Shown: positions 2,397 through 58,476, numbered from the stretch's first letter. The stretch: 64,000 nt of DNA from Candidatus Forterrea multitransposorum CG_2015-17_Forterrea_25_41 (GCA_009392915.1 CP045477.1:96001-160000); one strand, 5' to 3'. Program-made: numbers and translations. The notes: generated by a model not told the origin, from the letters alone.

Positions 2397-4484
2397 ATGC
2401 AGTTAAAGAAACTAACTTTAGTTTTATTATTTTTATTTATTTTTTCCATACCAGTTTTTTCTTCTTCTATAACTCTTTATGTTTCCTCTCCTTTTTCCTC
2501 TTCATCTTCAAATTTTAGTATTTCTCCTTCACTTTCTTTTGACAAGTTATCTTTAGTTTCAGAAGATAATTTATCTTTATTAAGAGAGCAAAATATTATT
2601 GTTAAAGAAGAAATTATTAAAGAAAAAGAATCTTCTTTAGAAGATAATTCTCTGTTAGAAGAAATAAATTCTCCAAATCATATTTATGAAACTTATTTTC
2701 AAGATTCTGTAATGATTGGAGATGTTTATTTTCCAGAAGGTATAATTGATTCTTCTCAAGTAAGAGAAAGAAGAAATATTAACTCTCAGTCTACAGTTGA
2801 TAATATTTGGGGTACCACTCCATTAACTGGAGAATATCATATTCCTGTTTTTTTAGTTGATTTTTCAGATGTTCCACATACTCTTTCTAAAGAAGTTTTT
2901 GAAGAACAATTTAATTCTCCTCTTTACTTGGACGGTAATGGTACAAGTGTAAGTCAGTATTACAAGAAACAATCCTATGGTGAACTTGATATTACTTTTG
3001 ATGTTTATGATTGGAGAGAAATGCCTGAAACTTATGAATATTATAGTACAAGATTAGGTGTTTTTGGAGCTCAAACAATAGATCTTTTTGGAACTGGTCC
3101 AAATGCAATTGATTTAACTCAATATGATTCTGATAATGATGGTAGGATAGATGGTTTTGTAATTGTTCACGCTGGTTTTTCTTTACAGAACGCTGGTACT
3201 GGTCATATTAAGACATCTACTTTATTAATGTATTCTGATGAAATTTTAACCATTCAAGGTTTGCATTATGGTAATATAGCTGTTACTTCTGAGAGATATC
3301 CTAGTTGTTCTTCTGGTTTTAATGAAAATTTAATTCCATATCCAGATGATTGTAGAATTGGTGTTTTAGATCAAACACATGAGTTTGGTCATATTTTAGG
3401 TCTTCCAGACTTTTATGGTATTGATCCAAATACTGGTGGTCAATCTCCTGGTCTTCAAAACCTAACTATGATGATGATGTATGATGACATTCCTCAAAAA
3501 CCAATTAATTTAGATGCTTGGGCAAGATATTTTTTAGGTTGGATACAACCAACTGTAATTGAAGAGGGCATGGAAGGTGTTTATCCAGTTTATTCAATTG
3601 ACACCAATCCAGATGGTGCTTTTATTTTACAAGATCTAACTGAGATGGATGAACGTGAATTTTTTATAATTGAAAATAGATTTATGCAAAACTCCCCTTA
3701 TAATCAAGATACTTTTCTTTTAAACACTTCTCAACTAAATTGGGATTATTTAAATGGTCATTTTGGTGGAATTGCAGTTTATCATGTTGATGAGCAATAC
3801 ATTGAAGATAATTATCCAACTAACAGTATCATGTGGGATCCTGATGGAGATTTTTATGATGATACTATAGGGCATCCTGGAATCGTTTTTGAAGAAAATA
3901 TAAAATTTTCAGAAAATAATTGGGATTATTCATTAGGAGATTTATATTCTAGTGAACGTAATGCTGGTTTTGGAGATAATACTTTTGGTAATTTTGATAG
4001 ATACCAAAGATTTTATCCAGAATATAATATGTTATGGGATTATCACAATAAAGCCTATAATGGTAATTTAACTGGTGTTACTGTTGGCACTTTAAGTGGT
4101 AGTGGATCTATAGTTTATGCTTATCTTCAAAGTTATCAAGAAACTTTTAATGCTTTAATCTCTTCTCCAAAAAATAACAGATGGTATAAGTATACTAATA
4201 ATTTAAATTTCATTTCAAGTTATTATAATAATTTAGGAGATGTAAGTTGTGTTTGGGAAGATTCCAGTAATAATATTCTATCTCAAGATTGTGAATTTTC
4301 TGCAACTCCAGAAGATTTAGGTTTACCAATCAGTGAATGTTCTGAGAAAATCACTCTAACTTTAGAAATAACAGATCAAGAAACTGGTGATACAATTATT
4401 GATACTGTTGATATAAAGATTTATGAAACCATAAGAGATATTTGTGAGACTGCTCATAACAACACCCAAGCAGCCACAAAATAA
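2397..4484 (+). CDS. secreted zinc metalloprotease, M6 (immune inhibitor A)-like
   Basis: 695 aa; Sec-type signal peptide MQLKKLTLVLLFLFIFSIPVFSS; HEFGHILGLPDFYG zinc-binding motif (HExxHxxGxxD) of the M6/InhA family. Confidence 0.55.
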   Translation: MQLKKLTLVLLFLFIFSIPVFSSSITLYVSSPFSSSSSNFSISPSLSFDKLSLVSEDNLSLLREQNIIVKEEIIKEKESSLEDNSLLEEINSPNHIYETYFQDSVMIGDVYFPEGIIDSSQVRERRNINSQSTVDNIWGTTPLTGEYHIPVFLVDFSDVPHTLSKEVFEEQFNSPLYLDGNGTSVSQYYKKQSYGELDITFDVYDWREMPETYEYYSTRLGVFGAQTIDLFGTGPNAIDLTQYDSDNDGRIDGFVIVHAGFSLQNAGTGHIKTSTLLMYSDEILTIQGLHYGNIAVTSERYPSCSSGFNENLIPYPDDCRIGVLDQTHEFGHILGLPDFYGIDPNTGGQSPGLQNLTMMMMYDDIPQKPINLDAWARYFLGWIQPTVIEEGMEGVYPVYSIDTNPDGAFILQDLTEMDEREFFIIENRFMQNSPYNQDTFLLNTSQLNWDYLNGHFGGIAVYHVDEQYIEDNYPTNSIMWDPDGDFYDDTIGHPGIVFEENIKFSENNWDYSLGDLYSSERNAGFGDNTFGNFDRYQRFYPEYNMLWDYHNKAYNGNLTGVTVGTLSGSGSIVYAYLQSYQETFNALISSPKNNRWYKYTNNLNFISSYYNNLGDVSCVWEDSSNNILSQDCEFSATPEDLGLPISECSEKITLTLEITDQETGDTIIDTVDIKIYETIRDICETAHNNTQAATK

Positions 4485-4561
4485 AAAAATAAGTAAACCA
4501 TTTATATACTTTATGTTATATAATTTATAATATAATTATTTAAAATAAAAAATAAATTAAG

Positions 4562-7531
4562 GTGAATATTTTGATAAAAATAAAAAAAGGACAAATTTCT
4601 TTAGAAGCAATTATTATAATTGGTGTTATTGTTTTAGCAAGTATTATATTTGCGACATTCTATATTTCTAATGTTAATAAAAAAATAGATACTGCAAGTA
4701 ATCTAGATCCTAATTTTTCTGGAATGATTGGATCTGATGAAATGGGGTCAACTGATCCTATAACTATTGGTGAAGAACCAGGTCCAGGCCCAGGTCCAGG
4801 AGGAAGTACTTGTGGTGATAATATTATTGAAGGTACAGAAGATTGTGATGGTACTAATTTAGGTGGTGCTACATGTGAGTCTGAAGGTCAAGGTACAGGA
4901 GATTTATCTTGTAATTCAAATTGTACTTTTGATTATTCTGGTTGTTCTAGTCCAACAGCAAGTTATACAATAACTTCAAGTCATGGATCAAATGGAACTA
5001 TTTTTCCTTTAGGAGCTGTAACAGTTTTAGAAGGGGCAAGTAAAAAATTTAATTTGTATCCAAATGCAGGTTATGATGTAGATACTGTTTCAATTGATGG
5101 TGCAGAAGTTTCTCTTAGTGAAAGAAGAAGTTATACTTTTAATAATGTTACTTCCGGTCATACTATTCATGTAACTTTTAAACCTTATGCTTCAAATGAA
5201 CATATTATTTTTGCAAGTAGTGGTTCTCATGGAACCATAGATCCTGCAAGAAATAATACAGTTATAGAAGGAGATGATATTACTTTTACATTTAATCCAG
5301 ATACAGGATATCGTGTAGGTAATGTCTATATTGATGATACTACTGTTGGTTCAGAACAAATAGAGATTATTAATGATTTTTCTTCAAAAGATTCTGAAAA
5401 TAATAATTTATATTTTTCAGAAGAAGATGTTTTATATTTTGCATCTGATACAGGGACAGGTACTTCTTCAAATTTAGTTTATACTTTTGAAGATGTAGAT
5501 GATAGTCATACTATTCATGTAACTTTTATATCAAACACAACTCCTACATATACTTTAGAATATATTGCTGGAGCAAATGGTAGTATTTCTGGTCCAAATC
5601 CTCAAACTGTAAGTCAAGGAGAAGATGGTACAGAAGTATGTGCTGTTGCAGATGAAGGTTATGAATTTTTTAAATGGGATGATGATTATTATTCTGAATG
5701 TAGAACTGAAACAAATGTAACAAGTAATCAAACATATACTGTTATCTTTAATGAAAATGCAGGTCAAACAATGGCTATGAATTTAGAAGGTGTTGAATCA
5801 ACTCCAATAAATCAAAACTTTGATGTTGTTGTTAATACTTCTGAAACTCCAGGAACTGTAAGTTATGGTTTAGTTGCAGGATTATTAATTTATAATGATG
5901 TTGCAGGAGATTATTTGCCAACAAACAATTGTTCTTATAACGGAACTTTTGCTTCAAATCATACACTTGAAACAAATCAATCTCCAGGTATTGAAAATTA
6001 TACTTTTACATGTAATACTTCTGGAAACTATAAATTTACATTTACAGCAACAGATACAACTAACTCAACAAATGATGTTTCAAGAGATAAATTAATTACT
6101 GTTGTAAATAACCAAACAGCAGCACCAACATTTTCAATTGATGGAGGTACTTATTTTAATGATCAAACATTAACTTTAAGTTCAACAACTCCTAGTGCAA
6201 CTATAAAATACACAACTAATGGTACTATCCCAACTTGTACTACAGGAACAACTTATTCTCCTGCAAGTCCAATTCAAATTAATCAAATTTTAACAGTAAA
6301 AGCAATTGCTTGTAAATCTGGATATATTGATAGTCAAGTTGTTACAGAAATTTATAATTTAAAAGTTGGATATCCAGAACCAAGTGTTAATCCTGGTGTA
6401 TATTCTCAAGCACAGACAATTACTCTTTCAACAGAAACAATTGGTGCAACTTTGTATTATTCAACAGATGGTTCTGATGCTTTTGATGGAAGTGTTTACG
6501 TTCCAGGAGAAGAAATTATAATTTCAAAACCATATACTGAATTAAGAGTGGCAGGAGAAAAATCAAATTATAATGATAGTTCAGAATTTGATGAATATTA
6601 TTATATAAATGGTTATGAATCTCCAACTCCAAGTATGGTTTTTACAAATTATTATGGAGATGCATATAATCTTGTAGGTGCTGCAAATTTAACTCACTCA
6701 GATGTTTTCTTTGAAGATGAAGAAAATAATTTAGTAAGATTTGTTAATCCTAAATTAAATGGAGATTATTTTAACGGAAGTAATGCTTCAGGAGCTACAT
6801 TAATAGATTGTGAGGCATTTTGTTCTGAAAAGTATCTTGGAGGAACTTGTGATTCTTTTGATAAAACTAATTATTCTGGAAATGCAAATAATTTGATATA
6901 TTATAGAAATATGATTCCTGGTTCTGGTGGTGCAAATGATGTTTTCCCTTACACAATTGGGGGTGAGTTATCTAATTCTCCTCAATGGGCTTATGCTTCT
7001 GGAGCTATTGGTGGACCAGATAGAGTAGGATACTTCACTTGTGATTTTTCACACACCTCCAGTCCAGAAGATGCAGACTTTGGATTTATTGATTTATATA
7101 CTGAAGATTTATTATTAAATTATGGTGATCCATTTGATGGTACAGAATTCTATTATGATTCTTCAAGAGTAACTTTTGATAATGTTACAAAGTCTGGTTC
7201 AGAATATACTTATTCAGGTTTAAATGTTGTAGGTAATTTTGACACACCAGGCGCAACTGCTCCAACAGGAACAGTTTATATACTTTCAGATGATTTTTCA
7301 CAAGCTTGTGATGCTGTATGTGATGCTTTATATCAAGAAAGTTCTTGTGAAAATTATGATACAACAGATGTATATACTGCTAAAGGAGTTTCATATAATT
7401 ATTATCCTCCTGAATATGCAACAATATTTAATCCTAATTTAAGTACAGGTTATTATTGGACATCTGGAAGTCAACTTTTCTATGATGTTTGGTCAGAAGC
7501 TGTTCTTTCAGAAGTTACTTGTTCAAAGTAA
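4562..7531 (+). CDS. giant surface protein with archaeal class III (type IV pilin-like) signal peptide
   Basis: 989 aa; the N-terminus (M)IKIKKGQISLEAIIIIGVIVLASIIF has the KG/Q...E(+5) prepilin-peptidase motif plus a hydrophobic helix; a Cys-rich CGDNIIEGTEDCDGTN...C repeat (Myxococcus-type cysteine-rich repeat) follows; Thr/Ser/Asn-rich beta-domain body; the start may instead be the TTG at 4571, which sits 5 nt after SD AAGGTGA. Confidence 0.5.
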   Translation: MNILIKIKKGQISLEAIIIIGVIVLASIIFATFYISNVNKKIDTASNLDPNFSGMIGSDEMGSTDPITIGEEPGPGPGPGGSTCGDNIIEGTEDCDGTNLGGATCESEGQGTGDLSCNSNCTFDYSGCSSPTASYTITSSHGSNGTIFPLGAVTVLEGASKKFNLYPNAGYDVDTVSIDGAEVSLSERRSYTFNNVTSGHTIHVTFKPYASNEHIIFASSGSHGTIDPARNNTVIEGDDITFTFNPDTGYRVGNVYIDDTTVGSEQIEIINDFSSKDSENNNLYFSEEDVLYFASDTGTGTSSNLVYTFEDVDDSHTIHVTFISNTTPTYTLEYIAGANGSISGPNPQTVSQGEDGTEVCAVADEGYEFFKWDDDYYSECRTETNVTSNQTYTVIFNENAGQTMAMNLEGVESTPINQNFDVVVNTSETPGTVSYGLVAGLLIYNDVAGDYLPTNNCSYNGTFASNHTLETNQSPGIENYTFTCNTSGNYKFTFTATDTTNSTNDVSRDKLITVVNNQTAAPTFSIDGGTYFNDQTLTLSSTTPSATIKYTTNGTIPTCTTGTTYSPASPIQINQILTVKAIACKSGYIDSQVVTEIYNLKVGYPEPSVNPGVYSQAQTITLSTETIGATLYYSTDGSDAFDGSVYVPGEEIIISKPYTELRVAGEKSNYNDSSEFDEYYYINGYESPTPSMVFTNYYGDAYNLVGAANLTHSDVFFEDEENNLVRFVNPKLNGDYFNGSNASGATLIDCEAFCSEKYLGGTCDSFDKTNYSGNANNLIYYRNMIPGSGGANDVFPYTIGGELSNSPQWAYASGAIGGPDRVGYFTCDFSHTSSPEDADFGFIDLYTEDLLLNYGDPFDGTEFYYDSSRVTFDNVTKSGSEYTYSGLNVVGNFDTPGATAPTGTVYILSDDFSQACDAVCDALYQESSCENYDTTDVYTAKGVSYNYYPPEYATIFNPNLSTGYYWTSGSQLFYDVWSEAVLSEVTCSK

Positions 7532-19799: not shown

Positions 19800-20474
19800 G
19801 TGTTTGATATCGCAGATTTTCCAAAATTAGAATCTCCCTTTATAAGAAAAACTATTAATGAAAAATATATAGTAACTTTTGAGATTAATCCTAAATATAA
19901 ATGGATTTTTAATAGAAACATTGTTTTAGCTTCAGAAAAGATAGATGGAACTAATGTTTCAATAATTATAAATAAAGGAAAAATAATTGATATATACAAT
20001 AGAAAAAATAAAATTGAAATATTAGCAAATAAAAAATATTTTAGATTTATAGATGGTATCAACTATGCCTTATATAAAGAATTATTTAGAACAAATAAAT
20101 CTATGCAAATATTTGGAGAATTAATTGGGCCAACAGTTAATGGAAATCCCTATAATGAAGTAAGAAACATATGGGTGCCTTTTTCTTACTTAAAAGAAAA
20201 ATGTGAATTTAAATTTTGGAATAAATTTTTAGAAGAAGAAATTGACGGTAAAGATTTAAGCGAAAAAGAAATATTTGAAAAAACATCAAATATTTTTAAA
20301 AATCTTTGGAGTCTTTATTATAGAAGAAAAACAGGCGAAAAGATATTTGCTGAAGGAATTGTATTTTATAATAAAGAAACTGGAGAGATGTGTAAACTAA
20401 GAAGAGATATGTTTGATTGGTATGAAGGAATTAGTCATGATTTTTTTAAAGCTAAAGCAAAAAAAGATCTATAA
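19800..20474 (+). CDS. stand-alone Rnl2-like ATP-dependent RNA ligase adenylyltransferase domain
   Basis: 224 aa; motif I EKIDGTN (KxDGxN), FGELIG (motif III-like), AEGIVFY (motif IV EGxV), CKLRRD (motif V Lys); GTG start 6 nt after SD GAGGTGG. Confidence 0.5.
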   Translation: MFDIADFPKLESPFIRKTINEKYIVTFEINPKYKWIFNRNIVLASEKIDGTNVSIIINKGKIIDIYNRKNKIEILANKKYFRFIDGINYALYKELFRTNKSMQIFGELIGPTVNGNPYNEVRNIWVPFSYLKEKCEFKFWNKFLEEEIDGKDLSEKEIFEKTSNIFKNLWSLYYRRKTGEKIFAEGIVFYNKETGEMCKLRRDMFDWYEGISHDFFKAKAKKDL

Positions 20475-20560
20475 AATGTAATTTTTATAAACATATTTTA
20501 TATTACTCACATCTGTGTATTACTCACAATCTTTTTAAATGTTTTGAGTAATACATATTT

Positions 20561-21496
20561 ATGAGTTATTTATCTAAACTTAAAAGAAATAATAAAACAT
20601 ATTATTATCTTGTAGAAAATATTCCTATATCTAAAGGTAGGCGAAAACAAATTAGAAAATATATAGGGACAATTAAACCTACAGATCAAAAATTATCTTT
20701 AGAACTATTAAAGTTTGAAAAAGAAATTACTTCTAAAAAAAAACAAATGCAAGGATTTACCTATTTAACTAAAGAAGAAATAAAAGAAGTAGATGAAATT
20801 AATTCAAATTTTTGGAAAAAATATAATAAATTATCAAAAACTGAGAGAGAAGAATTTTGGAATAATTTTATTGGAATTTTTGTTTTTAACACAAACTCAA
20901 TAGAAGGTTCAACTTTAACATTAAAGGAAGTTGAACTACTATTATCTGAAAATATATCTCCAAATAGACCTTTAGAAGATGTTTTAGAAGCAAAATCTGC
21001 AAAAAAAGCAATTAATTTTATTTTAAATTATAAATCTGATTTGTCAATAGATTTAATTACTAAAATTCATAAAATATATTTTAAAGAAAGCTTTCCAGAT
21101 ATAGCTGGTAAATTTAAAAGATTAAATAATAGAATAAAAGGATCAAAATTTGATACTACTCCAAAAGAACTAGTTTTAACTGATTTAAAAATACTTATAG
21201 ATAATTATAAAAAATTTAAAAAAGAATTACATCCAATAGAATTATCTGCTTGGTTGCATTGGTCTTTTGTAAAAATTCATCCTTTTCAAGATGGAAATGG
21301 AAGAATTTCAAGATTACTTATGAATTTTATACTTTTTAAAAATAAATATGCTTTAATAGATATTAAAACAAAAGAAAAACAAACATATTTTAATTCTCTT
21401 GAAAAATGTAATTATTTGAATAATGGAAAACCATTAGCTCAAAGATTAGTTAGAAGATTTAAAAAACAGTATAAAAATATATTTTCAAATTTATAG
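20561..21496 (+). CDS. Fic/Doc family protein (class II, self-inhibited AMPylase-like)
   Basis: HPFQDGNGRISR is the canonical Fic motif HxFx(D/E)GNGRxxR; upstream TNSIEGS matches the inhibitory-helix motif (S/T)xxxE(G/N). Confidence 0.8.
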   Translation: MSYLSKLKRNNKTYYYLVENIPISKGRRKQIRKYIGTIKPTDQKLSLELLKFEKEITSKKKQMQGFTYLTKEEIKEVDEINSNFWKKYNKLSKTEREEFWNNFIGIFVFNTNSIEGSTLTLKEVELLLSENISPNRPLEDVLEAKSAKKAINFILNYKSDLSIDLITKIHKIYFKESFPDIAGKFKRLNNRIKGSKFDTTPKELVLTDLKILIDNYKKFKKELHPIELSAWLHWSFVKIHPFQDGNGRISRLLMNFILFKNKYALIDIKTKEKQTYFNSLEKCNYLNNGKPLAQRLVRRFKKQYKNIFSNL

Positions 21497-46443: not shown

Positions 46444-46518
46444 GGGAGTGTAGCTTAGTCTGGTTGGAGCACTCGACTGATAATCGAGAGGCCGCAGGTT
46501 CGAATCCTGCCATTCCCA
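46444..46518 (+). tRNA. tRNA-Ile (anticodon GAU)
   Basis: GGGAGTG-TA-GCTT-AGTCTGGTTG-GAGC-A-CTCGA-CTGATAA-TCGAG-AGGCC-GCAGG-TTCGAAT-CCTGC-CATTCCC-A; no CCA encoded. Confidence 0.85.
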
Positions 46519-46559
46519 CTTTCTATTTTTATATAGATTTTAAAAAAAGAGGATAATTT

Positions 46560-49450: not shown

Positions 49451-49525
49451 GGAAGTGTAGCTTAGTCTGGTTAGAGCATTGGTCTTATACACCAAAGGTC
49501 GCAGGTTCGAATCCTGCCATTTCCA
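49451..49525 (+). tRNA. tRNA-Ile (anticodon UAU)
   Basis: GGAAGTG-TA-GCTT-AGTCTGGTTA-GAGC-A-TTGGT-CTTATAC-ACCAA-AGGTC-GCAGG-TTCGAAT-CCTGC-CATTTCC-A; the anticodon loop reads C-U-U-A-U-A-C; near-identical backbone to tRNA-Ile(GAU). Confidence 0.75.
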
Positions 49526-49582
49526 CTTTTTTTTAAAAATAAAGCTTTATAAATCTAATTAACTACTATATATTAGATAATT

Positions 49583-50956: not shown

Positions 50957-51061
50957 TTTTTAGATAAATTTAAAAATCTGTTTATAAATATAATAAATAA
51001 AAGAGATATATTTAAATTTAAAAGAGATAATAAAAATAGATAATAAAAGAGATAATAAAAC

Positions 51062-52408
51062 ATGATTGAACCAAACACATTTTTTTTAATATTTTCAGCA
51101 ATTTTTTTAATTGCTTTTTTTGGAAATCTTTTTTTTAAAAAGACAAGATTTTCAGATATTTCTATTCTTTTAATCATCGGTTTTTTAATTGGTTCTGTGT
51201 TTAACATTATTACCAATTCTCAACTTGAAATTTTAAAAAGTATGTCTTCTTTATTTGGTTCTTTAGCTTTAATTATTATTCTTTTTGAAGGTGGACTTCA
51301 TCTTAATTTTTATAAAGTTTTAAGAGAGATTGGAAAAGCTACAATGTTTACAATTGCAGTTTTCTTTTTTACAGTTCTTTTCTCTGGAGTTTTACTTCAT
51401 TATATTTTTTCAATACCTGCAATTTATGCACTTTTAATTGGTTCTGCAATTGGAGGTGTAAGTTCTGCTGTGGTAATTCCTTTAGTTATGAACTCTAAAT
51501 CTAAAGAAGAAACTAAAACTTTAATTACTTTAGAGTCTGCAATTACTGATGTTTTGTGTATTATTGTCTTTATAACTCTTTTTGAAATAATTGTGACTCA
51601 AAAATCAAGTATTCAGTTTGTTACTCAAAATATAATTTCTGCATTTGCAATTGCAACTGTTATAGGTGCAGTTTCAGGAATTGTTTGGACAAAGGTTTTA
51701 AGAGATTTTAATGTTATTAGAAAATTTAATTATCTTTTAACTCTTTCTTTTTTATTTTTAATTTATGTTTTAATTGAATATGCAAAAGGAAATGGAGCTT
51801 TTGGAGTTTTAATCTTTGGTTTAGTTTTAGGTAATTCTAATGAAATTTTAAAAATATTTAAAATGAAAACTTTAAGTCTTGATAATGTTGTTAGTTTAAA
51901 TGAAGTTTATAAGTTTCAAGCAGAAATTAGTTTATTTATTAAAGCATTTTTCTTTATTTATTTAGGACTTATAATTGATCTTTCTTCTGTAACTTTAAAT
52001 ATTATTTTAATTTCTGCAGTTTTAATTTTTGTATCAATTGCTTCTAGGTATTTATCCATTTATATATTTTCTGGAGATAAGACAATTAAGCAAGATACAA
52101 GATATATTTTATCTCTTCATGCAAGAGGACTTGCTGCTGCTGTTTTAGGTACTTATCCAATTGCTATGGGTCTTGTAAACAATTATACTTTAATCCTTTT
52201 ACCAATAACTTTCCTTGTAATCTTTTTAACAAATATTACAACTACTTTTATGTTTTTCTTTACAGAAAGAAATAAACTTAAGGAAGAGTCTTTAAATGAA
52301 GAATCTTCAGAAAAAGATTCTTCTCAGGAAGAAGAAACTAATCCTTATAGTTTAATTAAAAAATCTAATAAAAATAAAGATTCTAAAGAAAAAATAGATG
52401 ATAATTAA
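51062..52408 (+). CDS. cation:proton antiporter (NhaP/CPA1-type Na+/H+ exchanger)
   Basis: 448 aa; ~12 TM helices; LFEGGLHL and IGGVSSAVVIP segments typical of CPA1; acidic C-terminal tail. Confidence 0.6.
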   Translation: MIEPNTFFLIFSAIFLIAFFGNLFFKKTRFSDISILLIIGFLIGSVFNIITNSQLEILKSMSSLFGSLALIIILFEGGLHLNFYKVLREIGKATMFTIAVFFFTVLFSGVLLHYIFSIPAIYALLIGSAIGGVSSAVVIPLVMNSKSKEETKTLITLESAITDVLCIIVFITLFEIIVTQKSSIQFVTQNIISAFAIATVIGAVSGIVWTKVLRDFNVIRKFNYLLTLSFLFLIYVLIEYAKGNGAFGVLIFGLVLGNSNEILKIFKMKTLSLDNVVSLNEVYKFQAEISLFIKAFFFIYLGLIIDLSSVTLNIILISAVLIFVSIASRYLSIYIFSGDKTIKQDTRYILSLHARGLAAAVLGTYPIAMGLVNNYTLILLPITFLVIFLTNITTTFMFFFTERNKLKEESLNEESSEKDSSQEEETNPYSLIKKSNKNKDSKEKIDDN

Positions 52409-57287: not shown

Positions 57288-57595
57288 TTTTTTAAAAGAT
57301 AAAAGTATTATACTTTTTATAATACTTTTTCTTATATTATTTTAGATAATTTTATTTTGGGAATATATGATTAAAAATAAATCTAAGATTGTTTTAGAAG
57401 TAATTAAAGAAGTTGAAAAATTAAAAAAACAAAAGATTAAACCAATGTCAAAGAATGATTTAAATGATTTCTTTGAAAATGCTAAAAATTAATTTTTTAT
57501 ATTTAAATATTTTTTATATTCAATTTATTTGTCTAATTTTGTTTTTGTAATACAAATAGATTGTTTTTTAAACTTTTTGTATTACATAAATATAT

Positions 57596-58099
57596 ATGTT
57601 AAATAATAAAGTTAATGCTGTAATTGACTCTTCATTTTGGATAAACTTGAGTAGAGTTGATCTTACAAAATATTTATTAGATTATTTTACTATTTATTCT
57701 ACCATAAAAGTAAAAGAAGAACTTTTTGATTTTTACGAAAGAAGAGGTTATTTTTCAAAAGATTCTTATCTTTTTAAGTTATATTTAGAAGCAGATTTTA
57801 TTATTTTAAAAGACCTTAAAGAAATTACTTTAAAAATAAAGCAAGAATTGTCAAAAGATTCTGGAGAGTTATATTCTGCTGCTCTTTTAAAGGAAATTGG
57901 AGGTGTTTTTTTAACAGATGATAAGGGGGCACTTAATTTTTGCAAAAATAATAATCTTTTTGCAATTACTTCTGTTTATTTAATAGTTAGACTTTATAAG
58001 GATAATTTAATATCAAAAGAAAAAGCTAAATTTTCAATTATGCGATTAAAAGGAAAAATAAGTAATATACATATACAATCTGCTTTAAAGGATTTATAG
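57596..58099 (+). CDS. PIN-like nuclease domain protein (DUF3368-like toxin candidate)
   Basis: 167 aa; N-terminal AVIDSSFWINL acidic PIN start; internal TDDKGAL. Confidence 0.4.
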   Translation: MLNNKVNAVIDSSFWINLSRVDLTKYLLDYFTIYSTIKVKEELFDFYERRGYFSKDSYLFKLYLEADFIILKDLKEITLKIKQELSKDSGELYSAALLKEIGGVFLTDDKGALNFCKNNNLFAITSVYLIVRLYKDNLISKEKAKFSIMRLKGKISNIHIQSALKDL

Positions 58100-58119: not shown

Positions 58120-58476
58120 ATGGTTAAAAAAGATTATAAATTGAAATCTTATAGATTATCTGATAGTTCCTTAAAATTAATATATAATGTTTCTAAAGAA
58201 AAAGATTTGAGTGAATCTGAAGCTTTAAGAATGTTAGTTGACAAAGGGCTTTATGAATATAAGTTAGAGTCAGCAATAAAAACATATTATGATAAAAATT
58301 TAGATTTAACTGCTGGAGCAAAACTTGCTGGTATTTCCAAAAGAGAGTTTATGGAAGAACTTTCAAGAAAAGGGGAAGGTATTAATCTTTCAAAAGAAGA
58401 TTATGATTATTCTAAAAAATCTTTTGAAAAATTATTTGGAAAAACAAAAAAGAAAACTACTCAAAAGCCCAAGTAG
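58120..58476 (+). CDS. UPF0175-like HTH antitoxin candidate
   Basis: 118 aa; LDLTAGAKLAGISKREFMEELSRKG resembles the UPF0175 HTH (ISLGKAAELAGMSRWEF...); SD AAGGAGG. Confidence 0.45.
   Translation: MVKKDYKLKSYRLSDSSLKLIYNVSKEKDLSESEALRMLVDKGLYEYKLESAIKTYYDKNLDLTAGAKLAGISKREFMEELSRKGEGINLSKEDYDYSKKSFEKLFGKTKKKTTQKPK

Follow-up and report, generated by a model that had tools for sequence, protein, structure and literature searches.

The 64-kb stretch of DNA analysed here (the window) carries on its plus strand a gene for a class II Fic protein (20561..21496, ATG at 20561, 311 amino acids plus a stop codon) whose promoter bears three copies of an 11-nt repeat arranged around its TATA box. These repeats are very probably the protein-bound operator of the Fic promoter. 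With somewhat better than even confidence, we infer that the Fic protein itself binds this operator through its N-terminal domain (residues 1-66; 20561..20758, plus strand), a candidate DNA-binding domain delimited in structure models, and thereby represses its own promoter.

The first-pass annotation had described a canonical Fic motif and a self-inhibited class II protein, and both assignments were confirmed. The active-site motif HPFQDGNGRISR (residues 240-251, H240-PFQDGNGRIS-R251; 21278..21313, plus strand) fits HxFx(D/E)GN(G/K)RxxR and is invariant in 34 homologues. The Pfam Fic domain PF02661 is matched with E = 2e-19, the all-helical Fic fold is present, and the AlphaFold2 model has a mean pLDDT of 89. 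The inhibitory motif TNSIEG (T111-N-S-I-E115-G116; 20891..20908, plus strand) matches (S/T)xxxE(G/N), is likewise invariant in the 34 homologues, lies N-terminal to the Fic motif in the same chain, 125 residues upstream of H240, and aligns with the TVAIEGN region of FICD. Class II status is thus confirmed at the level of the sequence and of the modelled fold. In class II Fic proteins, the inhibitory glutamate is in contact with the second arginine of the motif and prevents ATP from binding productively.

By contrast, the description of the locus as a toxin-like module was not borne out, since the gene is without a partner or antitoxin gene, its neighbours vary between loci and the inhibitory helix is provided in cis. 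A class I Fic or type II toxin-antitoxin module was rejected because the window holds no partner ORF and none is conserved in the orthologous loci. Class I Fic pairs and Phd/Doc share the Fido fold with the present protein, and repeat-bearing autoregulated promoters are typical of toxin-antitoxin systems; however, these are two-gene operons in which the antitoxin supplies both the inhibitory helix and the DNA-binding domain, whereas a single gene is found here. The PADLOC models SoFic and PDC-S04, both candidate anti-phage systems, match the protein with E = 1e-21 and 5e-34, respectively, the matches being confined to the Fic domain (residues 83-310). The present Fic is, like them, a single-gene class II protein, but it has no C-terminal winged helix such as that of SoFic and, unlike the SoFic and PDC-S04 candidates, its gene is conserved throughout the lineage and is not sporadic.

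Upstream of the gene, copy 1 of the repeat (TATATTACTCA; 20499..20509, plus strand) is a distal direct repeat at -62..-52 relative to the ATG. Copy 2 (TGTATTACTCA; 20516..20526, plus strand, -45..-35), 17 bp further downstream, forms the upstream arm of an 11-bp inverted repeat whose other arm is copy 3 (TGAGTAATACA, the reverse complement of TGTATTACTCA; 20545..20555, minus strand) at -16..-6. The TATA box TTTTTAAA (20532..20539, plus strand, -29..-22) lies midway between copies 2 and 3, in the 18 nt that separate them, and the whole promoter reads TATATTACTCA CATCTG TGTATTACTCA CAATCTTTTTAAATGTTT TGAGTAATACA TATTT ATG(20561). The three copies have in common the 9-mer TATTACTCA, extended by its flanks to 11 nt, and copies 2 and 3 constitute widely spaced inverted half-sites (20516-20555) in the gene's own promoter. 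This agrees with the three copies initially reported, TATTACTCACA at 20501-20511 and 20518-20528 and TGAGTAATA at 20545-20553, with two corrections: the distance from TGAGTAATA to the ATG amounts to 7 nt and not 8, and the perfect inverted repeat (20516-20526 and 20545-20555) measures 11 bp and not 10.

The exact 9-mer occurs three times in the 64 kb, always in the Fic promoter, and the motif search that had been proposed at first pass, run on the window, returned no exact copy beyond these three. The 10-mer GTATTACTCA occurs twice, compared to an expectation of 0.11 in shuffled sequences, none of 100 of which contained it twice, and when the 70-nt regions upstream of the 48 long ORFs of the window were ranked for inverted and direct repeats combined, the Fic upstream region came first. 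A chance origin of the repeats was rejected on the basis of these counts, shuffles and ranking. Matches with one mismatch numbered 30 in the window compared to 39 expected; the motif shows no excess outside the Fic promoter and is therefore local to it. A regulon inside the window was also rejected, as there are no further exact copies and none enriched at one mismatch. Among about 100 loci, the 10-mer was found upstream of Fic orthologues only, save for one isolated match in locus L008. A degenerate fourth half-site (TGAGTTATT, 20562-20570) covers part of the start codon; with it, the region becomes an imperfect palindrome of 36 nt that has the TATA box at its centre. This half-site was rejected as a functional element since it is not kept in orthologues (L001, L082 and L083); the conserved Met-Ser/Ala-Tyr-Leu codons probably account for it.

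The named homologues belong to Candidatus Diapherotrites/Iainarchaeum (DPANN archaea), and the source genome is archaeal, of the DPANN group Diapherotrites/Iainarchaeota; bacterial promoter logic is therefore not applicable. Across the window, TATA-like 8-mers upstream of long ORFs are concentrated at -32..-28 from the ATG, with 25 starts over these five positions compared to about one per position elsewhere, and such a sharp peak is the mark of leaderless transcripts. The Fic TATA box TTTTTAAA lies in the register typical of the window's leaderless genes, and the Fic mRNA is probably leaderless, its start, as placed about 26 nt downstream of the centre of the TATA box, coinciding with the ATG. 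The inverted pair of copies 2 and 3 brackets the TATA box, copy 2 lying just upstream of the BRE/TATA region and copy 3 between the TATA box and the predicted transcription start. The archaeal origin, the TATA box inside the inverted repeat and the additional N-terminal domain, the one candidate DNA-binding part of the protein, had all gone unremarked at first pass.

Relatives were checked for absence of the operator-like repeats, and the layout proved to be kept: in 16/16 independent orthologous loci (53-100% protein identity), an 11-mer is followed by N6, a second 11-mer, N18 with TTTTTAAA or TTTATAA and an inverted 11-mer, the distance between copy 3 and the ATG being 5-7 nt. The 6-nt and 18-nt spacers, the TATA box apart, and the sequence upstream of copy 1 diverge freely; the TATA box, present in all orthologues, is the sole conserved element of the spacer. 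This layout is found even in L001, a much more GC-rich Iainarchaeum MAG. A seventeenth locus, L104, was added later. The exception, L084 (71% identity; 3880-4015), was left out of the table of 16 loci: copy 2 has been lost, and the stretch from copy 3 to the annotated ATG is longer by 32 nt, so that either a leader is present or the start is mis-assigned.

The adjoining genes differ in nearly every lineage, the window having an RNA ligase and a TraB-family gene and other loci having, among others, DUF6498, HAD hydrolase, AlaRS and methyltransferase genes. Over the approximately 8 kb covered around each orthologue, no regulator gene is conserved beside the Fic gene in any lineage. With such variable neighbours, the Fic gene is the only constant partner of the operator. 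It should be noted that the gene directly upstream of the Fic promoter in the window (19800-20474) belongs to the RNA-ligase family (PF09414, E = 1e-9). In L081 (contig Ga0334898_1000022), the Fic protein is 100% identical to that of the window and the intergenic region (3880-4000, compared to 20440-20560 in the window) contains several substitutions; thus the population sampled in the window is closely related, not identical, to that of L081. At copy 1, L081 reads TGTATTACTCA where the window reads TATATTACTCA.

In 7 of the 16 orthologous loci and in the distant locus L009, the operator-Fic unit directly follows a tRNA gene of the same strand, a frequency far above the approximately 5% expected from tRNA density. 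Five tRNA identities are represented among the seven orthologous loci, namely Ile (L082, 3721-3795), Tyr (L088, 3727-3853; L092, 3942-4064), Trp (L093, 3816-3937), Cys (L099, 2867-2938; L100, 2868-2938) and Ser (L103, 1857-1939), and a further tRNA-Tyr precedes the gene in L009 (3737-3884). Several of these genes have introns, and in L093, L099, L100 and L103 the 3' end of the tRNA is separated from copy 1 by 0-2 nt. The adjacency may be due to a hot spot of insertion, or to a mobile cassette of which copy 1 is the left boundary. The RNA ligase next to the Fic gene in the window and the tRNAs elsewhere give a loose hint of an RNA-related context, but may just as well be a coincidence.

Three operator variants were found across the lineages: TATTACTCA, as tGTATTACTCA in most loci; TGTTACTCA, as TATGTTACTCA in L100, L095, L093 and L103; and TATTACACA, as TTATTACACA in L102 and L104. 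The substitutions are shared by both orientations and, in most loci, by all three copies, copy 2 being degenerate in L093, L103 and L104. As copy 1 is unpaired and yet changes in concert with the others, this pattern points to one sequence-specific binder rather than to a hairpin. The ACA variant coincides with the substitution N20V in the second beta strand of the N-terminal domain, seen in L102 and then met, as predicted, in L104. Since the L102 and L104 proteins are close relatives, this pairing lends weak support to a possible correspondence between residue and operator. The idea that valine 2 alone determines the G-type operator was rejected because the protein P0037 combines V2 with an A-type second base.

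Paralogues within one genome have different operators. The MAG GCA_030649345.1 holds both P0100 (L101), with the A-type GTATTACTCA, and P0116 (L095), with the G-type ATGTTACTCA, an argument that presupposes a non-chimeric MAG. The Iainarchaeum contig L001 is free of that problem, as it carries two Fic paralogues in tandem (2833-3804 and 4001-4933) that are 31% identical and both have the N-terminal domain. The second paralogue, with the motif HPFKDGNKR, lies directly upstream of the orthologue and has its own TATA box at -30 and its own short repeats of 5-7 bp (ACTACAT at -74 and -36, TGTAG at -17). The same contig also carries a fluoride riboswitch (RF01734, 1171-1241, 38.8 bits).

More distant loci were obtained from an alignment scan of genome contigs; the matches listed were mostly distant bacterial Fic genes, and L001 was the only close orthologue among them. 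All full-length distant archaeal homologues among the matches listed (28-39% identity to the query), which come from MAGs of Woesearchaeota, Hadarchaeota, Aenigmatarchaeota, Bathyarchaeia and Nitrosopumilales, have the N-terminal domain. These distant homologues carry unrelated 8-12-bp repeats at the same TATA-flanking positions: GGTGACCACA...TGTGGYCACC in L003, L005, L006, L007 and L008, TGTAGTCACC in L009, L010, L012 and L017, and CCCTACA...TGTAGG in L002 and L004. L007 has a perfect inverted repeat of 11 bp. The copies that flank the TATA box in L009 and L010 are direct repeats and not inverted ones, which makes a symmetric dimer model too simple. The operator family thus follows the sequence family of the N-terminal domain across archaeal phyla, with the architecture remaining constant.

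In structure models (pLDDT about 90), the N-terminal domain consists of three antiparallel beta strands (residues 3-9, 12-24 and 27-36) and a helix (42-64). Residues 1-40 contain 11 Lys/Arg compared to one Glu, and the invariant residues of the domain are Y3, L4, Y14, Y16, E19, R28, Q30, R32, Y34 and G36; a very basic N-terminal domain is present in all orthologues and in the distant archaeal homologues examined. Searches of Pfam and NCBIfam with residues 1-103 gave sub-threshold noise only and no family. No solved structure is related by sequence to the domain, all matches starting at residue 79 or later, and this start of homology leaves the N-terminal domain as the sole part of the protein outside the Fic fold. 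An AP2 or integrase arm-type fold was defined by three antiparallel strands packed on a helix together with significant structural similarity, and the fold search with the domain gave no convincing structural relative. The Fic protein has no match to an HTH family and ends with the Fic core helices, and none of the other ORFs of the window contains a second copy of the domain as a separate regulator. When a profile of the domain was compared with 1.8 billion representative proteins, 73 proteins were recovered, mostly Fic proteins or short fragments, together with a few other fusions. P0139 and P0165 combine the domain with a thioredoxin-like [2Fe-2S] ferredoxin (PF01257) and with an acetate kinase fragment; such fusions may be real or may be gene-calling artefacts. 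A role in DNA binding, suggested by context, charge and topology rather than by homology, is the most likely one for the domain. The class II Fic AMP-transferases FICD/HYPE, BT_2513 (3CUC) and CdFic (4X2C) are without an N-terminal beta-sheet domain, FICD having instead a TPR region and a membrane anchor. We know of no operator arrangement described for these three proteins, and in the literature we found no description of the regulation of archaeal or DPANN Fic proteins.

That the Fic protein could bind the repeats itself had been raised at first pass, and this stands as the best-supported reading, by inference from comparison. Under the mechanism that we propose, the repeats would serve as operator in the archaeal promoter of the Fic gene itself, with copy 1 as an auxiliary site, and the binder would be the Fic protein through its basic three-stranded beta-sheet domain. 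As the protein accumulates, the sites would be occupied and the binding of TBP/TFB or the recruitment of RNA polymerase would be blocked: occupation of copy 2 would disturb TFB binding at the BRE, and occupation of copy 3 would prevent RNA polymerase recruitment. Such negative autoregulation would hold a self-inhibited class II AMP-transferase at a low, constant level. MDR1, LrpA and Phr are archaeal repressors that act from sites just downstream of the TATA box. Their sites overlap or adjoin the TATA/BRE region and block recruitment of TBP/TFB or RNA polymerase, as proposed here, and autoregulation is common among such archaeal core-promoter repressors; however, they are dedicated HTH or winged-helix regulators, whereas the present candidate is an enzyme with a non-HTH domain.

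The nearest design is that of CccR, a class II Fic protein of Yersinia pseudotuberculosis with a C-terminal HTH, which binds as a dimer to AGATAATCAT-N26-ATGATAATCT and represses its own promoter (PMC9755527). Each of the two is a class II Fic protein made of a single chain, with its inhibitory (S/T)xxxEG motif on the N-terminal side. Both possess an extra module, which binds DNA in CccR and is a candidate for doing so here, and both genes have two 10-11-bp inverted half-sites separated by an unusually long spacer (N26 for CccR, N18 here) in their own promoters. Auto-repression was shown experimentally for CccR and is deduced by comparison for the present Fic. The two systems differ in several respects. 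The DNA-binding part of CccR is its C-terminal HTH, whereas the present Fic has no HTH and its extra domain is N-terminal, with a beta3-alpha topology; unlike that of CccR, the promoter described here is archaeal (TATA/BRE, leaderless), its half-sites lie on either side of the TATA box and a direct third copy is present. CccR furthermore acts as an effector secreted through a T6SS, a role of which the present Fic gives no indication.

It is also conceivable, though rather unlikely, that a distinct transcription factor, encoded at another place in the genome, binds the repeats and that the N-terminal domain serves, for instance, target recognition or oligomerisation. The conservation and promoter placement of the repeats call for a sequence-specific binder of whatever kind, the lack of a convincing structural relative of the domain leaves room for such other roles, and a distal co-evolving factor could lie beyond the 8 kb covered around each orthologue. 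Yet the constancy of the Fic gene, with no regulator conserved at its side, and the restriction of the 10-mer to Fic promoters but for the match in L008 both speak against a separate factor. Moreover, the differing operators of paralogues in one genome or contig would demand one dedicated factor per paralogue, each having duplicated and diverged together with its Fic gene, and the correspondence between operator family and N-terminal domain family across archaeal phyla argues further for the Fic protein as the binder.

Two further readings have to be weighed. The inverted repeat might act as an RNA or single-stranded DNA hairpin, either a 5' leader hiding the start codon or a terminator of the upstream gene or tRNA. 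The region 20495-20575 does fold as RNA at -19.5 kcal/mol (z = -5.2 compared to shuffles), an outer stem pairs copy 1 with the start codon AUGAGU, and the A-to-G and T-to-A variants alter both arms, so that pairing is kept. However, the loop of this hairpin is the conserved TATA box at the genome-typical position -30, from which the transcript should start downstream of the stem, and there is no conserved upstream promoter. The arms are nearly invariant and not freely covarying, copy 1 has no conserved pairing partner for the changes that it shares with the other copies, and the direct TATA-flanking repeats of L009 and L010 are unable to pair. We hold a hairpin to be most improbable. The tRNA genes adjoining operator-Fic units prompted the other reading, in which the repeats are remnants of recombination or attachment sites of a mobile cassette inserting beside tRNA genes and their promoter position is incidental. 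No recombinase gene is present beside the Fic gene, however; recombination sites would not need the constant spacing from TATA box and ATG that is seen here, and neither target-site duplications nor matching repeats were found 3' of the gene, the motif being upstream only. This origin is very unlikely as an explanation of the repeats, although it is compatible with an operator function and not exclusive of it.

Returning to autoregulation by the Fic protein, a broader form of the proposal can be put forward tentatively, with rather less than even confidence. The N-terminal domain would be an undescribed sequence-specific DNA-binding module that defines a pan-archaeal family of self-repressing Fic proteins (in DPANN, Hadarchaeota, Bathyarchaeia and Nitrosopumilales MAGs), each enzyme clamping the TATA box of its own leaderless gene. 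The specificities of operator and domain would have co-diversified, insulating paralogues from each other, and the preferential location of the cassette downstream of tRNA genes would hint at a mobile or defence-type module.

Several other elements of the window were recorded during this work. An 11-bp inverted repeat, TGTAATACAAA / TTTGTATTACA, flanks TTTTTTAAAC at 57546-57586, in the same design as the Fic promoter, 9 nt before the ATG of a 167-aa ORF (57596-58099) that has a PIN-like N-terminus and no Pfam or PADLOC match and is followed by a 118-aa ORF (58120-58476). Its half-site and the Fic operator both contain GTAWTAC, in opposite orientations. A 14-nt perfect direct repeat, TAAAAGAGATAATA, occurs at 51019-51032 and 51044-51057, and part of it recurs as AAAAGAGATA near 51000; these copies shortly precede a gene for a Na+/H+ exchanger (51062-52405, PF00999). 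Finally, tRNA-Ile(TAT) was found besides tRNA-Ile(GAT) (window 49451-49526 and 46444-46519; L082 3721-3795); a tRNA-Ile with the anticodon TAT represents an unusual mode of AUA decoding for archaea.

Class II proteins make up the majority of the Fic family, and their control is largely unknown according to the CccR study (PMC9755527). Relative to that precedent, what would be new here is the candidate N-terminal non-HTH DNA-binding domain, the putative archaeal operator flanking the TATA box and the self-regulation deduced from sequence comparison. If the proposal is true, auto-repression by the enzyme would be recurrent among Fic proteins, having arisen independently with a different DNA-binding domain, and it would extend to the archaeal, eukaryote-like transcription system. 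The N-terminal domain would then be a new small DNA-binding fold whose specificity code may be readable from the co-variation of operator and protein, with residue 20 and operator position 7, and residue 2 and operator position 2, as candidate specificity pairs. The Fic promoter would also be among the first predicted cis-regulatory circuits for uncultured DPANN archaea.
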